64,000 bases of DNA from a virus (Duplodnaviria; Heunggongvirae; Uroviricota; Caudoviricetes), in the IMG/VR virus record IMGVR_UViG_3300029957_000005, positions 1 through 64,000 of that record; one strand, written 5' to 3'. How positions within the stretch are numbered: the first letter of the stretch is position 1; the number at the start of each line of letters is the position of its first letter. Positions 51,755 through 57,105 of the stretch are shown here, piece by piece. The notes beneath the pieces were generated by a model. The model was given only the letters and a program-made list of their open reading frames with translations, was not told the DNA's origin and did not search any database. The position numbers were made by a program, and so were the translations under genes.

Positions 51755-52150
51755 ATGAACAGCCTATCCTGGATTCTCTACTTCGCCGACGTCCTCTCGA
51801 AGCTTGGTGATATCTTCGCCGGACTTGGAGCGGTCCTCATGTTCGTCTCCATCGTCTGCATCATTCCGGGCTTCCTGGTCGTCTGGCAATATTCCAGCGA
51901 GCAGTTCGCCCAGTCCAAACGGACCTTCGGCCGCATCTCCTTGATCGGCATCCCGATCGCAACCTTCATGATCATCGTCTCGATCTTCATCCCTTCCAAG
52001 GAGACCATGTACATGATCGCTGCCTCAGAGGTCGGTGAGACCGTCATGACTTCGAACGACGGCAAGGAGATCTACGCCGAACTCAAGTCCACGATCCTGG
52101 ACAACATTCGTCAGCTCCGCACCCAGGCTGAGAAGGGATCCGGCAAGTGA
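51755..52150 (+). CDS. membrane protein (2 TM)
   Basis: Internal ATG after HD stop; hydrophobic helices. Confidence 0.5.
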   Translation: MNSLSWILYFADVLSKLGDIFAGLGAVLMFVSIVCIIPGFLVVWQYSSEQFAQSKRTFGRISLIGIPIATFMIIVSIFIPSKETMYMIAASEVGETVMTSNDGKEIYAELKSTILDNIRQLRTQAEKGSGK

Positions 52151-52835: not shown

Positions 52836-53091
52836 AGAAGTTCAAACCATTCGCCTGAGCCACTGGATCCGTCGAGGCAATATGCTCCTAAATGCGAGCT
52901 GTCTGGACCTCGACGATCCCGAACATCTGTTCAATCAAGCCCTGGAACAAGGGGTCGATCCGACGGACTTCGGGATCGAGGATCCACTCGAAGAAATGTT
53001 CGGAGACTGGTCTGTGTCCAAGCTCCGTCGTGAAGTCTACAATCTCAGGAAGGAACTGGAATCAGTCCTTCGCTGGCAAGCGGCAGGTTGA
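52819..53091 (+). CDS. hypothetical acidic protein
   Basis: ORF track. Confidence 0.45.
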   Translation: MQDTGEEVQTIRLSHWIRRGNMLLNASCLDLDDPEHLFNQALEQGVDPTDFGIEDPLEEMFGDWSVSKLRREVYNLRKELESVLRWQAAG

Positions 53092-53092
53092 T

Positions 53093-53287
53093 ATGGATCT
53101 CAAGGCTCTACACACCCTCGTGATGGCGATGGCCGACGGCTACGCCTTCAACACCTTCACACCGGAGGACGATGAGTTCGATCGGACCATGCTCCTCGTC
53201 GAAAACCCGAAGTATGATCCAATCAATGGAGAGGATCCGTATCTTGTCCTTGACCTCAATGAGTTCAAGGATTTTTGTAAATCCTGA
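53093..53287 (+). CDS. hypothetical protein (64 aa)
   Basis: ATG after upstream TGA; the longer ORF 52892 has junk N-terminus. Confidence 0.4.
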   Translation: MDLKALHTLVMAMADGYAFNTFTPEDDEFDRTMLLVENPKYDPINGEDPYLVLDLNEFKDFCKS

Positions 53288-53298
53288 CGAAAATACGG

Positions 53299-53326
53299 TT
53301 TACAAAGTCTGGAATCAGTTTAGAGT
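53299..53326 (+). promoter_or_regulatory. sigma70-like promoter TTTACA-N16-TAGAGT
   Basis: Preceded by GAAAATACGG, the reverse complement of the CCGTATTTTC upstream element. Confidence 0.4.
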
Positions 53327-53558
53327 GATCATCAACGAAACAGAGATCGCTCCAATGTTCAAGATCCACTACACAATTCGAATGACCTTTGGTCCTCTCG
53401 CCGGACTCGACATTCCATGTTCGATCACCTATCCGGAAAGCTCCCGAGCTCGAGTCGTCGCCAGCTTCGACACGGACATTCGCGATCGTCGGATCATCAA
53501 TGGGATCGGTCACTCTCGCTATACGATCGAGAGCTATTGGATCGAGGAAAACCTCTAG

Positions 53559-53865
53559 CATGTGCAAACCTAAAGCCGGAAAGCTGACTACGAACGCGCG
53601 GCGGCACCGCATCAATCTCCTCAAGAAATCCCAAGGAATGAACTGCTGCTACTGCGACGTCGAGATGATCGAGGTCCCGAGAGTGGATGGAGTCACTCCT
53701 CCGAAGACCTCCCTGACTCTGGAGCACCTCAAGAGGATCGAGGACGGCGGCACCCACGCCATGGATAATCTAGCCCTGGCCTGCTTCGAATGCAATTACT
53801 ACAGAGGAAATATCGATTGGTTCACCTACAAGTCCTACAGACAGGGTGAACTCTGGGCAGCATAG
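53559..53865 (+). CDS. HNH endonuclease
   Basis: CCYCDVEM...TLEHLKRIEDGGTHAMDNLALACFECNYYRG = HNH zinc-finger nuclease motif. Confidence 0.7.
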
Positions 53866-53910
53866 ATATACCCGATTAATACTTTGACTTCCTTTCCAGG
53901 AGACATCGAG

Positions 53911-54099
53911 ATGAAGATAGACGACATGCGTGAAGAGTACGGTCCAGTCGTGGATCGAAGAAAGAAAGCCGTCTCTCACAATCTCCTCACCGTCTATAAA
54001 CTCCTCAAGACACTCGAAGCCAACTCAGACCCCGGCCTTGTTGCCATCGCCGCGGCCGAATCTGCCAAGTGGGTAGAGGACTACAGGAACTCGCTATGA
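53911..54099 (+). CDS. hypothetical protein
   Basis: AGGAGA RBS 8 nt upstream. Confidence 0.4.
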   Translation: MKIDDMREEYGPVVDRRKKAVSHNLLTVYKLLKTLEANSDPGLVAIAAAESAKWVEDYRNSL

Positions 54100-54506
54100 C
54101 GACCAGATGGGTCATCTTCAATTCGGTGTCGGTCTTCATCCTGGCCTACCTCTATGAGTTCTATTCGATCTTCGGCGTGGTCTCATCCATGGACCCTACC
54201 ATGGTCACTTCCCTGATCTTCAGCATCTACTTGGGCTGTACTTTCTACATCGGATGGAACGGCTTTGACTCCAACTTCAGGGCCGTTAGATTCATCGGCT
54301 CGAAGCTGACAGGCATCGGTCTTATCGGAACGGTGGCCGGGATCATGATCCTCCTGAGAGAAGCATCAACTCTGGCCCCGGACGATGTGATCGGTCCTCT
54401 GTTCAGAGGAATGGGCACGGTCTTGATCACCACCCTCTTCGGTGTGGCGTTCAATCTCCTCCTGGCGTTCCAGATCGCCTTCTGCTTCGAGGAGTATGAT
54501 GAATAA
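54096..54506 (+). CDS. minimal MotA/TolQ/ExbB-family proton-channel protein (136 aa, 4 TM)
   Basis: IGLIGTVAGIM and GMGTVLITTLFGVAFNLLLAF match the conserved C-terminal TM pair of ExbB/TolQ/MotA (IGLFGTVWGIM ... ALIATAAGLFAAIPAVVAFN). No large cytoplasmic domain. Confidence 0.6.
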   Translation: MTTRWVIFNSVSVFILAYLYEFYSIFGVVSSMDPTMVTSLIFSIYLGCTFYIGWNGFDSNFRAVRFIGSKLTGIGLIGTVAGIMILLREASTLAPDDVIGPLFRGMGTVLITTLFGVAFNLLLAFQIAFCFEEYDE

Positions 54507-55074
54507 GGTAACTTCTGTTGCCTACATAGACCTTCTCTCCGTCCTCTTCGTTTTCTTCTTCGTCGCCTTTGCCATAGTCTATTCAGTCCAGAAGAAGCAC
54601 GATGCGATCCTCGGAAATACGGTCTCAAAGGCAGAATTCCTGGTGACCATGGATTGGCCGGATGCTTCGGACAATGACTATGATCTCTGGGTTCGTGACC
54701 CCGACGACAGGACCGCCTTCTTCAGGAACAAGGAGACCAAGCTCCTGACCCTGGATCGTGATGATCAGGGAGACGGAGGCAAGATCTTTCCGGTTCGTCG
54801 TGAGATCGTCTCCTTCCGTGGACTCAAGGCTGGGACCTACACCGTGAATGTCGTCCTCTGGAACAAGAGGGCTGCCCCCGAAAAGGCCCGGATCTCCGTG
54901 GTCAAGCTCAATCCATTCTCGATCATCGAAGAAAAGACGGTCGAACTAACTCAGACAAAAGAAGAAGTAACGATCCTGTCCTTCACAGTGGACGAGACGG
55001 GTCGTGTCATCGCCAAGAACCACGATCCGGTTAAGATGGTTCAAGACTTCTTCGCCGAGGACTCCACAAAATGA
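54496..55074 (+). CDS. ExbD/TolR/MotB-like protein (single N-terminal TM with conserved Asp, periplasmic domain)
   Basis: TM VAYIDLLSVLFVFFFVAF matches ExbD/TolR INVTPFIDVMLVLLIIF, including the invariant TM Asp. Overlaps the MotA-like gene by 11 nt. Confidence 0.6.
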   Translation: MMNKVTSVAYIDLLSVLFVFFFVAFAIVYSVQKKHDAILGNTVSKAEFLVTMDWPDASDNDYDLWVRDPDDRTAFFRNKETKLLTLDRDDQGDGGKIFPVRREIVSFRGLKAGTYTVNVVLWNKRAAPEKARISVVKLNPFSIIEEKTVELTQTKEEVTILSFTVDETGRVIAKNHDPVKMVQDFFAEDSTK

Positions 55075-55511
55075 TCAATACTGCCGTCTTCGTGCTGGTT
55101 GCTACTCTCCTGATCCTGACCCTGTTCCTGAGATACATCGAGGTCAAGCTCGCCGTCCCGATCCTTCTGGTCATGGCTCTTCTTGCCATCCAACCTCTCC
55201 CATCGATCCTCGGATATCCGGTGGAAGAGAGGTTCGTCCAAGGCAAGGAGGGCGTCGTCCTGGGCGGATCCGGAAGAACGTTGATGCTCATGTTCAAGGG
55301 CGAGTCCCAGCCCAGGCTCGTCATCCTCTCGGACGCCAATAAGGTCCAGGAGGCCCTGAAGAAATCCAAGACAACAGTGGTCTTCATCAAGTTCGATAAG
55401 AAGTCCGGAAAGACCAAGGACGGCACAAGCGGAGAGACCGAGAACGAAGATCTCTCAAGTCTCCAATTTGTCGACGGAAACGATCAAACCATGGTTCAGA
55501 AGGATCCTTGA
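55071..55511 (+). CDS. membrane protein (2 N-terminal TM, soluble Lys/Glu-rich C-terminal domain); third gene of the MotA/ExbD-like operon
   Basis: ATGA overlap with the ExbD-like gene. Could be a TolA/TonB-like partner, although no SHLS motif is seen. Confidence 0.5.
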   Translation: MINTAVFVLVATLLILTLFLRYIEVKLAVPILLVMALLAIQPLPSILGYPVEERFVQGKEGVVLGGSGRTLMLMFKGESQPRLVILSDANKVQEALKKSKTTVVFIKFDKKSGKTKDGTSGETENEDLSSLQFVDGNDQTMVQKDP

Positions 55512-55531
55512 GGATCCACGCATTTTCCGTA

Positions 55532-55560
55532 TTTACATTCCTTTCGAGATAGAGTAGAGT
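55532..55560 (+). promoter_or_regulatory. sigma70-like promoter TTTACA-N17-TAGAGT with conserved upstream element CGCATTTTCCGTA
   Basis: The 18-nt upstream block is identical to that at 58389-58406. Confidence 0.5.
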
Positions 55561-55584
55561 CTTCTCAGAATACAGGAGATCGAC

Positions 55585-55764
55585 GTGAACATCCAACAGC
55601 TTCGAGATCAGATCGTTTCAGACCTTCGGACTCTTCCGAACGGTCGGGAATACTCCAAGGTTTCGGACAAGCTTCGGTCCTTCGTCAACGCCCACATCCC
55701 CGAAGCCGAGATCGTCAAGGTCGGTCGCAAGTTCATCCTCCGTCTCAAGGGAGAATTGAAGTGA
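55585..55764 (+). CDS. small hypothetical protein (GTG start), paralogous to the next gene
   Basis: AGGAGA RBS 8 nt upstream of GTG. VNIQQLRDQIVSDL... vs MNIQLSEEEIRELV... Confidence 0.4.
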   Translation: MNIQQLRDQIVSDLRTLPNGREYSKVSDKLRSFVNAHIPEAEIVKVGRKFILRLKGELK

Positions 55765-55946
55765 ACATCCAACTGTCCGAAGAAGAAATTCGAGAGCTCG
55801 TTGAAGTTCTTGGGAGCGCCCAAGCGGTCTTCGAGGATGCAGCTGAAACCGAGACTGGTCTGGTCCACAACACCCTGATCTATCGCATGAAGCAGTGTGA
55901 GAAGTTCATCTCCAAGATCGCCGACCAGTTCAACAAGCAATTTTGA
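55761..55946 (+). CDS. small hypothetical protein (GTG start, GTGA overlap)
   Basis: ORF track; GGGAGA RBS. Confidence 0.4.
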   Translation: MNIQLSEEEIRELVEVLGSAQAVFEDAAETETGLVHNTLIYRMKQCEKFISKIADQFNKQF

Positions 55947-55956
55947 GGAACTCGCA

Positions 55957-56145
55957 ATGATCTTCTGGTACCTCGTTTCCTTCCCGTTCTGGATTTCCGG
56001 AATCTGGATCCTCTACATGATCGCCCGGGACTTCAAGCGATTTGGACTCAAAGCCTTCACCGAGACACCGGTCCTCGAGTCCTTCGCCATCTGGTTCGGT
56101 CTCGTTCTGCTCGCCGTCGCCGGCCACCTCTGTGGAGTAATCTGA
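55957..56145 (+). CDS. small membrane protein
   Basis: Internal ATG with GAGGAA RBS; two hydrophobic helices. Confidence 0.4.
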   Translation: MIFWYLVSFPFWISGIWILYMIARDFKRFGLKAFTETPVLESFAIWFGLVLLAVAGHLCGVI

Positions 56146-56438
56146 TGCCCAGCCCGATGTACCCGAAGAAGGACGAACCGAAGCATGGTCTTGTCTACAA
56201 GATCATCGAAGGTCTCGCCATCGCCTACATCATCGGAGCCTCGATCGTCTTCCTTCCGACGGCCACAATGCTCTACACCGCCCTTGAAGAGAACGACTCG
56301 CTCTACGCCATGAGCAAACGACTCCTCAAGACCAACGACTATCTGTTCAATGCCGCCAACTCCCGCGGTCTCCTTGAAATCTGCGAAAACGCAGACGGAG
56401 AGATGGGTGTCATCTTCAAAGAGGACTGCAAGAAATGA
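56145..56438 (+). CDS. membrane protein
   Basis: ATGA overlap; one TM. Confidence 0.5.
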   Translation: MPSPMYPKKDEPKHGLVYKIIEGLAIAYIIGASIVFLPTATMLYTALEENDSLYAMSKRLLKTNDYLFNAANSRGLLEICENADGEMGVIFKEDCKK

Positions 56439-56608
56439 GCCCACGTTTCAACGACTATTTTCTCGTACTCGGAATTGCCTTCGTCTGCCTCCTGGTCCTC
56501 GGAGGGATCGTTCTCGAGTTCTCGGCCCTCTACCACTGTGGATGGTCCGGTGTCCTCTACGGTCGGAATGTCTTCTGGGCCTACATATTCGGATACTGCA
56601 ATGGGTGA
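56435..56608 (+). CDS. small membrane protein (57 aa), not in ORF track
   Basis: MSPRFNDYFLVLGIAFVCLLVLGGIVLEF... ATGA overlap upstream and ATG..TGA overlap downstream. Confidence 0.3.
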   Translation: MSPRFNDYFLVLGIAFVCLLVLGGIVLEFSALYHCGWSGVLYGRNVFWAYIFGYCNG

Positions 56609-56843
56609 TCACATCGAAGGACTCCACCCAGGTCCTCTCGTCTACCCGGACAATCCGGAGCTGGATGCCACCGATTGGGCTCACCCGGCCTGGTGGAGAG
56701 GAAACGACCGAGGAGTCGAGGCGACCTGTGAGATGCTCCACGCCATCATCGATGGGAAGTATCCGCAGGGAACAGTAGGCTACGAACCACTGGAGCGCCT
56801 CCGCTGGAGGATCCAGGGATTGCTCGAACAACAAGCGATGTGA
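56601..56843 (+). CDS. hypothetical protein
   Basis: Internal ATG of ORF 56475. Confidence 0.4.
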   Translation: MGDHIEGLHPGPLVYPDNPELDATDWAHPAWWRGNDRGVEATCEMLHAIIDGKYPQGTVGYEPLERLRWRIQGLLEQQAM

Positions 56844-56847
56844 TGCC

Positions 56848-57105
56848 ATGCAGTTCAATCTCTTCGTTCCTCAAGAAATCGTTCCGACCAACAGCGATGG
56901 GTGGTTCTTCTGGGACCCCTGGGTTTCATTCACCAAGGAAACCCTGAAGCTCTACTCGGACATTCTCGGAGACGATCAGTTCGAGCTGTTCGATTACGAA
57001 GAAGTAGCAGTGGACACCTACGTCTGCAAGTTTCTGATCTCTCCGATCGGGATGGACAGACTCGAGAAGTGGTCCTCCAAGAGGAAAAGTCTGAATGCTT
57101 TTTGA
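56848..57105 (+). CDS. hypothetical protein
   Basis: ORF track. Confidence 0.45.
   Translation: MQFNLFVPQEIVPTNSDGWFFWDPWVSFTKETLKLYSDILGDDQFELFDYEEVAVDTYVCKFLISPIGMDRLEKWSSKRKSLNAF

Follow-up and report, generated by a model that had tools for sequence, protein, structure and literature searches.

Can a phage act on the envelope of its host from the inside, with an ion-driven motor of its own? This question is raised by three overlapping genes, here named A, B and C, at positions 54096-55511 of a 64,000-nucleotide stretch of phage DNA (hereafter the window; positions 1 to 64,000 of IMG/VR record IMGVR_UViG_3300029957_000005, Caudoviricetes). To our knowledge, all characterised MotA/ExbB-type motors are host machines, namely the flagellar stator, the Ton, Tol and Zorya systems and the gliding/type IX secretion system (T9SS) motor. 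The original prediction, made from the sequence of the window, proposed that A and B are a minimal MotA/ExbB-like and ExbD/TolR-like proton-channel pair accompanied by a third membrane protein, C. Our analysis indicates that this trio is real, widespread and unannotated, and that it is notable as a phage-borne minimal form. We consider it rather probable that its products together make up a self-contained machine of the inner membrane that belongs to the 5:2 ion-driven motors of the MotA/ExbB type and does its work in the periplasm.

The three proteins of the module

The 141 loci compared within the family lie on chromosomes of bacteria, on IMG/VR contigs and in phages of Rhizobium/Sinorhizobium, and were scanned with hidden Markov models (HMMs) of A, B and C. 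Protein A had been described as a four-helix MotA/TolQ/ExbB-type subunit without the large cytoplasmic domain, and it fits this description by profile score, by alignment with TolQ and by the spacing of its helices. The Pfam model MotA_ExbB (PF01618) matched residues 60-124 of A significantly, with 28.7 bits against a gathering cut-off of 22.9 bits, and PF01618 is present as precomputed annotation on six of six close homologues. The best PADLOC and NCBIfam matches of A were both ZorA2 (1.3e-8 and 3.5e-5), followed by PomA, ExbB, MotP and TolQ; the alignment to the ZorA2 profiles, which are 420-590 positions long, runs contiguously and without an insert over their first ~115 positions. A seven-member profile of A searched against the PDB retrieved subunits of 5:2 motors with solved structures, namely ZorA, TolQ, MotA and ExbB (E 7e-4 to 7e-2; 8vvn and 8vvi are Zorya ZorA structures), and a search of A against the PHROGs gave zero matches.

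Further hhalign comparison of A with Escherichia coli TolQ (E 4e-5, probability 69%) aligned the hairpin of A with TM2-TM3 of TolQ, where TM denotes a transmembrane helix, and paired GLIGTVAG with GLFGTVWG and LITTLFG with LIATAIG. Owing to this pairing, T79 and T113 of A correspond to T145 and T178 of TolQ, numbered by counting along the TolQ sequence. Pore-lining threonines in the last two TM helices are characteristic of the family, as exemplified by T145/T178 of TolQ and T148/T181 of ExbB. Among 138 A proteins, the conserved positions include W5 (135), D33 (137), G75 (137), G78 (137), T79 (129), G82 (136), T113 (135), G116 (138) and Q126 (134), each of the two threonines being at least 93% conserved. 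Judged from its sequence, A belongs to the MotA/TolQ/ExbB family and has kept the pore threonines. Of its four hydrophobic helices, the second and the third are only ~11 residues apart, and the large cytoplasmic domain found between TM segments in this family is absent from A. Correspondingly, a bacterial homologue (L007) carries a ~100-aa cytoplasmic insert exactly between these two helices. The window protein has 136 aa, and median lengths are 165 aa for IMG/VR contigs and 254 aa for bacterial genomes, indicating that the phage forms are consistently short. One cluster representative of 411 aa (P0070) joins a MotA_ExbB domain to B (B profile at 266-408), which is either a natural fusion or a gene-calling read-through.

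Protein B has its only TM helix, which contains Asp12, at the N-terminus; a short linker joins this helix to a periplasmic β-sandwich of ten strands. In an AlphaFold2 (AF2) model built from a 41-sequence alignment, with a mean predicted local distance difference test (pLDDT) score of 84, helix 7-39 is followed by a low-confidence linker and by strands 48-175, and by hydropathy 140 of the 141 family members have a single TM segment. The TM helix, VAYIDLLSVLFVFFFVAF (B 8-25), resembles IAYADFMTAMMAFFLV of MotB and TPFIDVMLVLLIIF of ExbD, with the core motif AYIDLL being similar to AYADFM in MotB and PFIDVM in ExbD. Across 150 diverse representatives of clusters at 50% identity, the conservation of D12 is at least 90%, and Asp occupies this column in 53/53 IMG/VR, 4/4 Rhizobium-phage and 10/10 Burkholderiales-type loci. 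When the profile of the 150 representatives was aligned with E. coli MotB by hhalign, D12 was paired with D32 in a weak alignment (E 0.005, probability 7%), which placed the KAEF segment of B on the MotB plug region. Other matches to axle subunits were sporadic: NCBIfam MotD gave E 0.26 with B, Pfam MotB_plug was found in 1/22 and 3/150 relatives, and Pfam ExbD (PF02472) in 1/150 (E 0.005). Because no significant ExbD/TolR match was found and the MotB match is weak, we regard B as the counterpart of MotB, ExbD and TolR in position and pattern, and homology to them as plausible.

The periplasmic domain of B had been called unrelated to ExbD, TolR and MotB, which agrees with the β-sandwich and its DUF2135/TerD-like affinities. 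hhalign placed B 43-128 on 138-218 of E. coli YfaP, within the DUF2135 region (78 columns, probability 89%, E 2.3e-6), and the Joint Genome Institute (JGI) product name of a relative (P0014), 'YfaP (DUF2135 family)', agrees with this alignment. The Pfam DUF2135 model itself matched neither the window B nor the relatives scanned, and a remote homology of the B domain to DUF2135 is therefore suggested by the profile alignment. In fold the sandwich appears closest to TerD, although hhalign with TerD gave no meaningful alignment. Invariant residues of the domain are W54, D61, D63, P69, L86, D87, D89, G92, E103, R108, G113, N118 and KLNP137-140, and its acidic DxD and LDRDD motifs, which appear similar to the calcium sites of such sandwiches, may bind calcium. 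YfaP lies in an alpha-2-macroglobulin operon and TerD is cytoplasmic; unlike B, neither is linked to a MotA-type channel. The OmpA-like peptidoglycan-binding domain of MotB and ZorB was matched by Pfam in neither the window B nor its relatives. A single-sequence PDB search with B gave zero matches, and Foldseek with the AF2 model of B found nothing in the PDB at E<=1e-3. In BFVD the best match of the model was S0A5K4, a 713-aa protein of Cellulophaga phage phi4:1 (E 4e-6), in line with a match to phrog_1735. DUF2135/TerD-like sandwiches thus also occur within large phage proteins of unassigned function (phrog_1735, S0A5K4), and a DDVDIYVKGPNG-type motif is found in a solved 'virion structural protein' of 864 aa (PDB 11pb_C). 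The domain may have a wider role in phage-envelope contacts.

Protein C had been labelled bitopic, and this label is wrong because hydropathy gives two N-terminal TM helices (~2-20 and ~26-46), a hairpin also seen in the AF2 model. Two TM segments were likewise found in 70/131 family members at a strict threshold, the window protein having them as well. The hydrophobic helices are followed by a G-Y/W-P element (GYP in the window) and by a small β/α domain with a few strands, a P-R-L/A element (PRL in the window) and a helix; further on, a low-complexity linker in which G, D, E and K abound precedes a conserved motif at the C-terminus, with the family consensus h-x-F-Y-x-L-P-P-x-x-L-P-x-K-D. 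It is shared by the C proteins of phages and bacteria alike (L001-L140). In a relative at 53% identity (L150), the tail LQFVDGNDQTMVQKDP of the window corresponds to VRFLGSEEQTMIQKDP, and the preceding linker has diverged. The motif looks like a docking peptide for a partner. The Lys/Arg counts of the inter-helix loop (1.6) and of the 15 residues past helix 2 (1.5) are too even to fix the topology of C, for which we infer an N-out/C-out orientation with a periplasmic tail. Searches of C against Pfam, PHROG and PADLOC gave zero matches, and a word-indexed search retrieved only C itself; in a single-sequence AF2 model (pLDDT 55), helices 2-40 are confident and the remainder is poor.

Conservation, distribution and evolution of the trio

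The overlaps between the three genes, and the three open reading frames (ORFs) themselves, were confirmed at the positions first given for them. The stop codon of A sits within B, the two genes overlapping by 11 nt, and the junction of B and C is an ATGA overlap (55071-55074). A Shine-Dalgarno-like, purine-rich run precedes every start codon. Judging from these overlapping stops and starts, A, B and C are translationally coupled. The order A-B-C is kept in 125/141 loci, a homologue of C lies downstream of B in 127/141 by HMM, and C can be aligned with the gene in third position at each related locus. Compared with the syntenic relative L150, A has a ratio of nonsynonymous to synonymous substitution (dN/dS) of 0.25, B of 0.18 and C of 0.35, and purifying selection acts on the trio. 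The motifs quoted in the original prediction are all present in A and B, and the idea that they arose by chance in unrelated small membrane proteins was rejected in view of the score in Pfam, the conservation of the Thr and Asp residues, the shared gene order and the signs of purifying selection.

A search for the same cassette in other phages had been suggested, and it was found in Rhizobium and Sinorhizobium phages and in IMG/VR contigs. tblastn retrieved 23 phage records with A and 28 with B, all of them Rhizobium or Sinorhizobium phages. In the temperate Sinorhizobium/Rhizobium phage 16-3, the small genes p039 and p041 are inserted between the members of the trio, and a periplasmic trypsin-like protease (p036) is encoded just upstream; in Rhizobium phage RHph_I3_11 (L002), a trypsin-like peptidase lies ~2.5 kb downstream of the trio. 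A marine T4-like contig (L144) encodes a trio of 159/233/165 aa with ribosomal protein S21 immediately downstream (2371-2586), and RNase H as well. In a search of 1.84 billion proteins, the cluster representatives matched by the B profile (50% identity) numbered 2292 at E<=1e-3, of which 685 reached E<=1e-30; most of the matches listed have 190-230 aa. A peptide pattern of B occurs in at least 590 species genomes, the best 80 being mostly Bradyrhizobium, plus Burkholderiales, Rhodovulum and Dongia; it also occurs in 53 contigs of IMG/VR, the longest having 242 kb.

The bacterial copies have chromosomal, genus-dependent contexts, for example a two-component system with ADSL, or a pyrroloquinoline quinone (PQQ) dehydrogenase with ABC transporters. 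No neighbour was conserved across genera in 81 bacterial loci, where synteny is confined to within a genus (the two-component system in Bradyrhizobium), and a larger operon around the trio was rejected for this reason. The B domains of phages and bacteria are about equally diverged (37-47% identity), and the nearest neighbour of most viral B sequences is another viral sequence; a recent capture therefore does not account for the phage copies, which are old and diverse. The original prediction of a stripped-down stator unit, if read as Ton, Tol or Mot reduced specifically in phages, does not hold, as the same family is chromosomal in Bradyrhizobium, Burkholderiales and others. The trio forms a large family of three-gene modules in its own right, widespread among bacteria of soil and water and carried by many other phages.

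Neither B nor C is given a name by any model of Pfam, NCBIfam, PHROG or PADLOC, every GenBank phage copy of the trio is annotated 'hypothetical', and our literature search turned up no account of the A-B-C module or of any phage-encoded MotA/ExbB-type motor, consistent with the earlier statement that the genes fit no described phage function. A family with at least 2292 clusters (50% identity) and hundreds of bacterial species is nameless in current libraries. Passages of two surveys (PMC12204202; PMC12505986) state that further motor-coupled systems await discovery.

Proposed mechanism and competing explanations

The family membership and threonines of A, the conserved Asp of B, the translational coupling, the conserved gene order and the purifying selection are established by the data; by analogy with TolQRA and ExbBD-TonB, we infer the 5:2 stoichiometry, proton conduction, the roles of the B domain and of C, and its use in infection. 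In the proposed mechanism, A would assemble as the outer ring and two B helices would occupy its centre, with Asp12 of B facing Thr79 and Thr113 of A as the putative proton path, and proton flow would turn A relative to B. Gene coupling and the A-B fusion P0070 support a complex of these two proteins. The membrane-proximal DUF2135/TerD-like sandwich of B, probably calcium-binding, would serve as a periplasmic stator or anchor, and its remote homology to the extracytoplasmic DUF2135 of YfaP points to a periplasmic output. C would dock on the ring via its helical hairpin, and its flexible charged linker and C-terminal peptide would reach a periplasmic or cell-wall target, as TolA and TonB do with TolQR and ExbBD. 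As the phage A has lost its cytoplasmic insert, no partner in the cytoplasm would need to be engaged, and without a cytoplasmic domain the useful output would have to lie in the membrane or the periplasm.

As in Tol-Pal and Ton, three adjacent inner-membrane genes encode a MotA/ExbB-family ring, a subunit that crosses the membrane once and has a TM Asp, and a third partner anchored in the membrane, which in Tol and Ton has an extended periplasmic part with periplasmic output, as C may have. In contrast to Tol and Ton, the four-helix A is devoid of a cytoplasmic domain, the sandwich of B does not have the ExbD/TolR fold and has no profile match, and C has a two-helix hairpin without an SHLS/His motif or the TonB/TolA C-terminal domain. 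A shares with MotAB and PomAB the four-TM topology with both termini inside, B shares with MotB the AYIDLL-like helix and the aligned Asp, and the genes overlap as in MotAB. Unlike in MotAB and PomAB, there is no cytoplasmic torque-generating domain, no OmpA-like peptidoglycan-binding domain and no flagellar gene nearby, and the third gene is obligatory. ZorA2 provides the best-scoring profile for A and a compact TM domain without an insert, whereas A lacks the long ZorA tail, B lacks the ZorB-like peptidoglycan-binding domain, and ZorC/D/E partners are missing from the trio, which occurs in phages and in bacteria without Zor genes. In addition, passages of one survey (Mol Biol Evol 2025, PMC12204202) propose motor-coupled force transducers with a von Willebrand factor A (vWA) domain, which are likewise uncharacterised partners beside tolQR-like genes and are read as new trans-envelope systems powered by proton motive force (PMF). 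As described there, these transducers are single-TM vWA proteins with a conserved His, whereas the present trio has no vWA domain, has a different B and is phage-borne.

Several observations weigh against this motor. The 5:2 stoichiometry is assumed from the family, and we know of no ring without a cytoplasmic domain among solved 5:2 motors. The weak MotB alignment (probability 7%) is the sole axle-subunit match of B: PF02472 did not match the window B, no TM alignment resulted when hhalign compared the B profile with TolR, whether on its own or together with ExbD, and the ExbD/TolR assignment first made for B finds a Pfam hit in only the single relative mentioned above. B was also said to carry an invariant Asp in its single N-terminal TM helix. 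One TM helix and a D12 that is at least 90% conserved were indeed found, but invariance fails in ~70 Bradyrhizobium-type chromosomal B proteins (L008-L087), which carry Val in the D12 column. The same proteins have an Asp four residues upstream and a Lys four residues downstream (D8/V12/K16), one helical turn each, and in Burkholderiales-type B proteins both the upstream and the D12 column hold Asp. The ion path thus differs within the family, and D8/V12/K16 may be a shifted or altered ion site. For C, the AF2 fold beyond the TM helices is uninformative, and its profile against the PDB gave only noise, with no likeness to any solved structure. The suggestion that C is a TolA/TonB-like partner was not upheld, since hhalign against TolA, the PDB search and Pfam detected no TolA/TonB similarity and C has no His-containing anchor of the TolA/TonB type.

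What the machine would do in infection can only be guessed, the candidates being PMF-powered manipulation or protection of the host envelope, for example exclusion of competing phages or stabilisation until lysis. Our ranking places such a PMF-powered envelope function first, as a guess, followed by substitution of a host machine, a proton leak or PMF sensor, and a ZorAB decoy. Under substitution, the phage copy would replace the A-B-C module of the host, or its Tol/Ton system, after host shut-off, sustaining the outer membrane or nutrient uptake until lysis. Host-like auxiliary genes are common in phages, homologous chromosomal modules exist in Alpha- and Betaproteobacteria, and the near-equal divergence of phage and bacterial B domains is compatible with this explanation. 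We nevertheless find it unlikely: phage A proteins consistently lack the cytoplasmic insert and so are not simple copies, TonB/TolA similarity is absent, and the chromosomal modules in our sample, which was not a systematic search, belong to Bradyrhizobium and Burkholderiales and not to the Rhizobium hosts of the cultured phages.

Less likely still is a regulated proton leak or PMF sensor, in which a minimal A-B channel would time holin triggering or arrest the host, with the B sandwich as plug or gate and C as regulator. Unplugged MotAB-type channels, such as those of MotB plug mutants, do leak protons, and the phage proteins have no cytoplasmic domain for mechanical work; the alignment of KAEF to the MotB plug region and the MotB_plug matches of some relatives also point this way. 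However, KAEF forms the first sandwich strand in the AF2 model instead of an amphipathic plug helix, the conserved tail of C suggests a binding target rather than gating, no recognisable lysis genes adjoin the trio in the window or in the Rhizobium phages, and free-living bacteria keep the module as a stand-alone chromosomal unit, where a leak would be costly. The least probable of the three is a counter-defence decoy, in which a tail-less A together with B would poison or mimic ZorAB-type or other MotAB-like sensors, by ring mixing or by occupying envelope sites, and cause Zorya signalling to fail. ZorA2 as the top PADLOC/NCBIfam match of A, aligned without an insert over the first ~115 profile positions, the ZorA chains among its best PDB matches and the missing cytoplasmic effector-coupling part of phage A would suit a decoy. 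Yet TolQ scores as high as ZorA against the A family profile, B is unlike ZorB, and neither B nor C has a PADLOC match. Moreover, the trio is chromosomal in many bacteria, with a full-length A and no Zor genes nearby, and a decoy would need neither the conserved ion-path Asp and Thr nor the conserved third partner.

In its widest form, the preferred reading of a PMF-powered envelope machine remains tentative: the trio would represent an unrecognised class of ion-driven ring-and-axle motor, cut down to its TM core in phages, with a new calcium-binding stator domain and a hairpin-anchored, peptide-tipped transducer. Unrelated lineages (T4-like phages, Pootjesviridae, 68-kb Rhizobium phages, temperate phage 16-3 and marine myophages) would carry it for a PMF-powered envelope process such as rival exclusion, resistance to envelope-sensing defences or lysis control, and it would be the first such motor encoded by a virus. 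If true, a phage-encoded motor without a cytoplasmic domain means that the TM core alone is a usable engine, and the trio would be the smallest natural system that converts ion flow into periplasmic work. Tractable copies for studying phage action on the envelope from inside are p038-p042 of phage 16-3 and genes 191-193 of P10VF.

Gene layout and phage setting

Table 1 Coordinates of the trio and its features in the window, and gene names of copies in cultured phages
Feature	Position	Strand	Remarks
Gene A	54096-54506	+	ATG start; 136 aa; TAA stop at 54504-54506
Gene B	54496-55074	+	192 aa, starting MMNKVTS; alternative ATG at 54499 gives a 191-aa form (P0001)
Gene C	55071-55511	+	146 aa; third gene of the trio
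Small ORF 5' of A	53911-54099	+	62 aa, soluble; ribosome-binding site AGGAGA; TGA stop overlaps the ATG of A (ATGA)
IGLIGTVAGIM, A residues 74-84	54315-54347	+	Penultimate TM helix; G75, G78, T79, G82
GMGTVLITTLFGVAFNLLL, A residues 105-123	54408-54464	+	Last TM helix; T112, T113, G116
Asp12 codon (GAC) of B	54529-54531	+	Candidate ion-binding residue of the axle helix
β-sandwich of B, residues 46-176	54631-55023	+	DUF2135-like, TerD-like fold
LQFVDGNDQTMVQKDP, C residues 131-146	55461-55508	+	Conserved motif at the extreme C-terminus; includes QTMVQKDP
Copies in Pootjesviridae	P10VF genes 191-193; RHph_I46 EVB81_147-149
Copy in a 68-kb Rhizobium phage	RHph_I3_11 genes 063-065
Copy in a 171-kb phage	RHph_I1_18 EVB91_122-124
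Copy in temperate Sinorhizobium/Rhizobium phage 16-3	NC_011103 (L154 1675-3536)		Split trio: p038 A-like (E 3e-9), p040 B-like (E 1.5e-27), p042 C-like (E 2e-14)

The T4-like replication/accessory setting first suggested for the trio was recognised in its surroundings (Table 1 for the trio itself), where the phage genes encode a primase, a tRNA nucleotidyltransferase, a deoxynucleoside monophosphate (dNMP) phosphatase, an HNH endonuclease, the DenV endonuclease V and an RNA ligase. The source contig spans 163 kb, and the T4-type DNA polymerase of the window has only ~33% identity to any cultured phage. Megablast of 53000-57000 against 50,697 phage records gave zero matches, so no close cultured relative is recognised among them.

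The 62-aa ORF that precedes A has a counterpart of 68% identity in the syntenic relative L150 (5413-5604), and no homologue was found in the other 140 loci, which are all the remaining A-B-C loci scanned. A role as a fourth component of the trio was rejected, the ORF being present only in the window and this close relative; it is a lineage-specific coupled gene outside the conserved trio. Its product is probably helical and may be a lineage-specific regulator or partner. Just 5' of this region, a small membrane protein with hydrophobic helices is encoded at 51755-52150 (+) and matches phrog_3878 (E 3e-16), a family with no assigned function. In L150, a 36-aa product encoded at 736-846, adjoining the tRNA nucleotidyltransferase, matches Pfam ArfA (alternative ribosome-rescue factor A).

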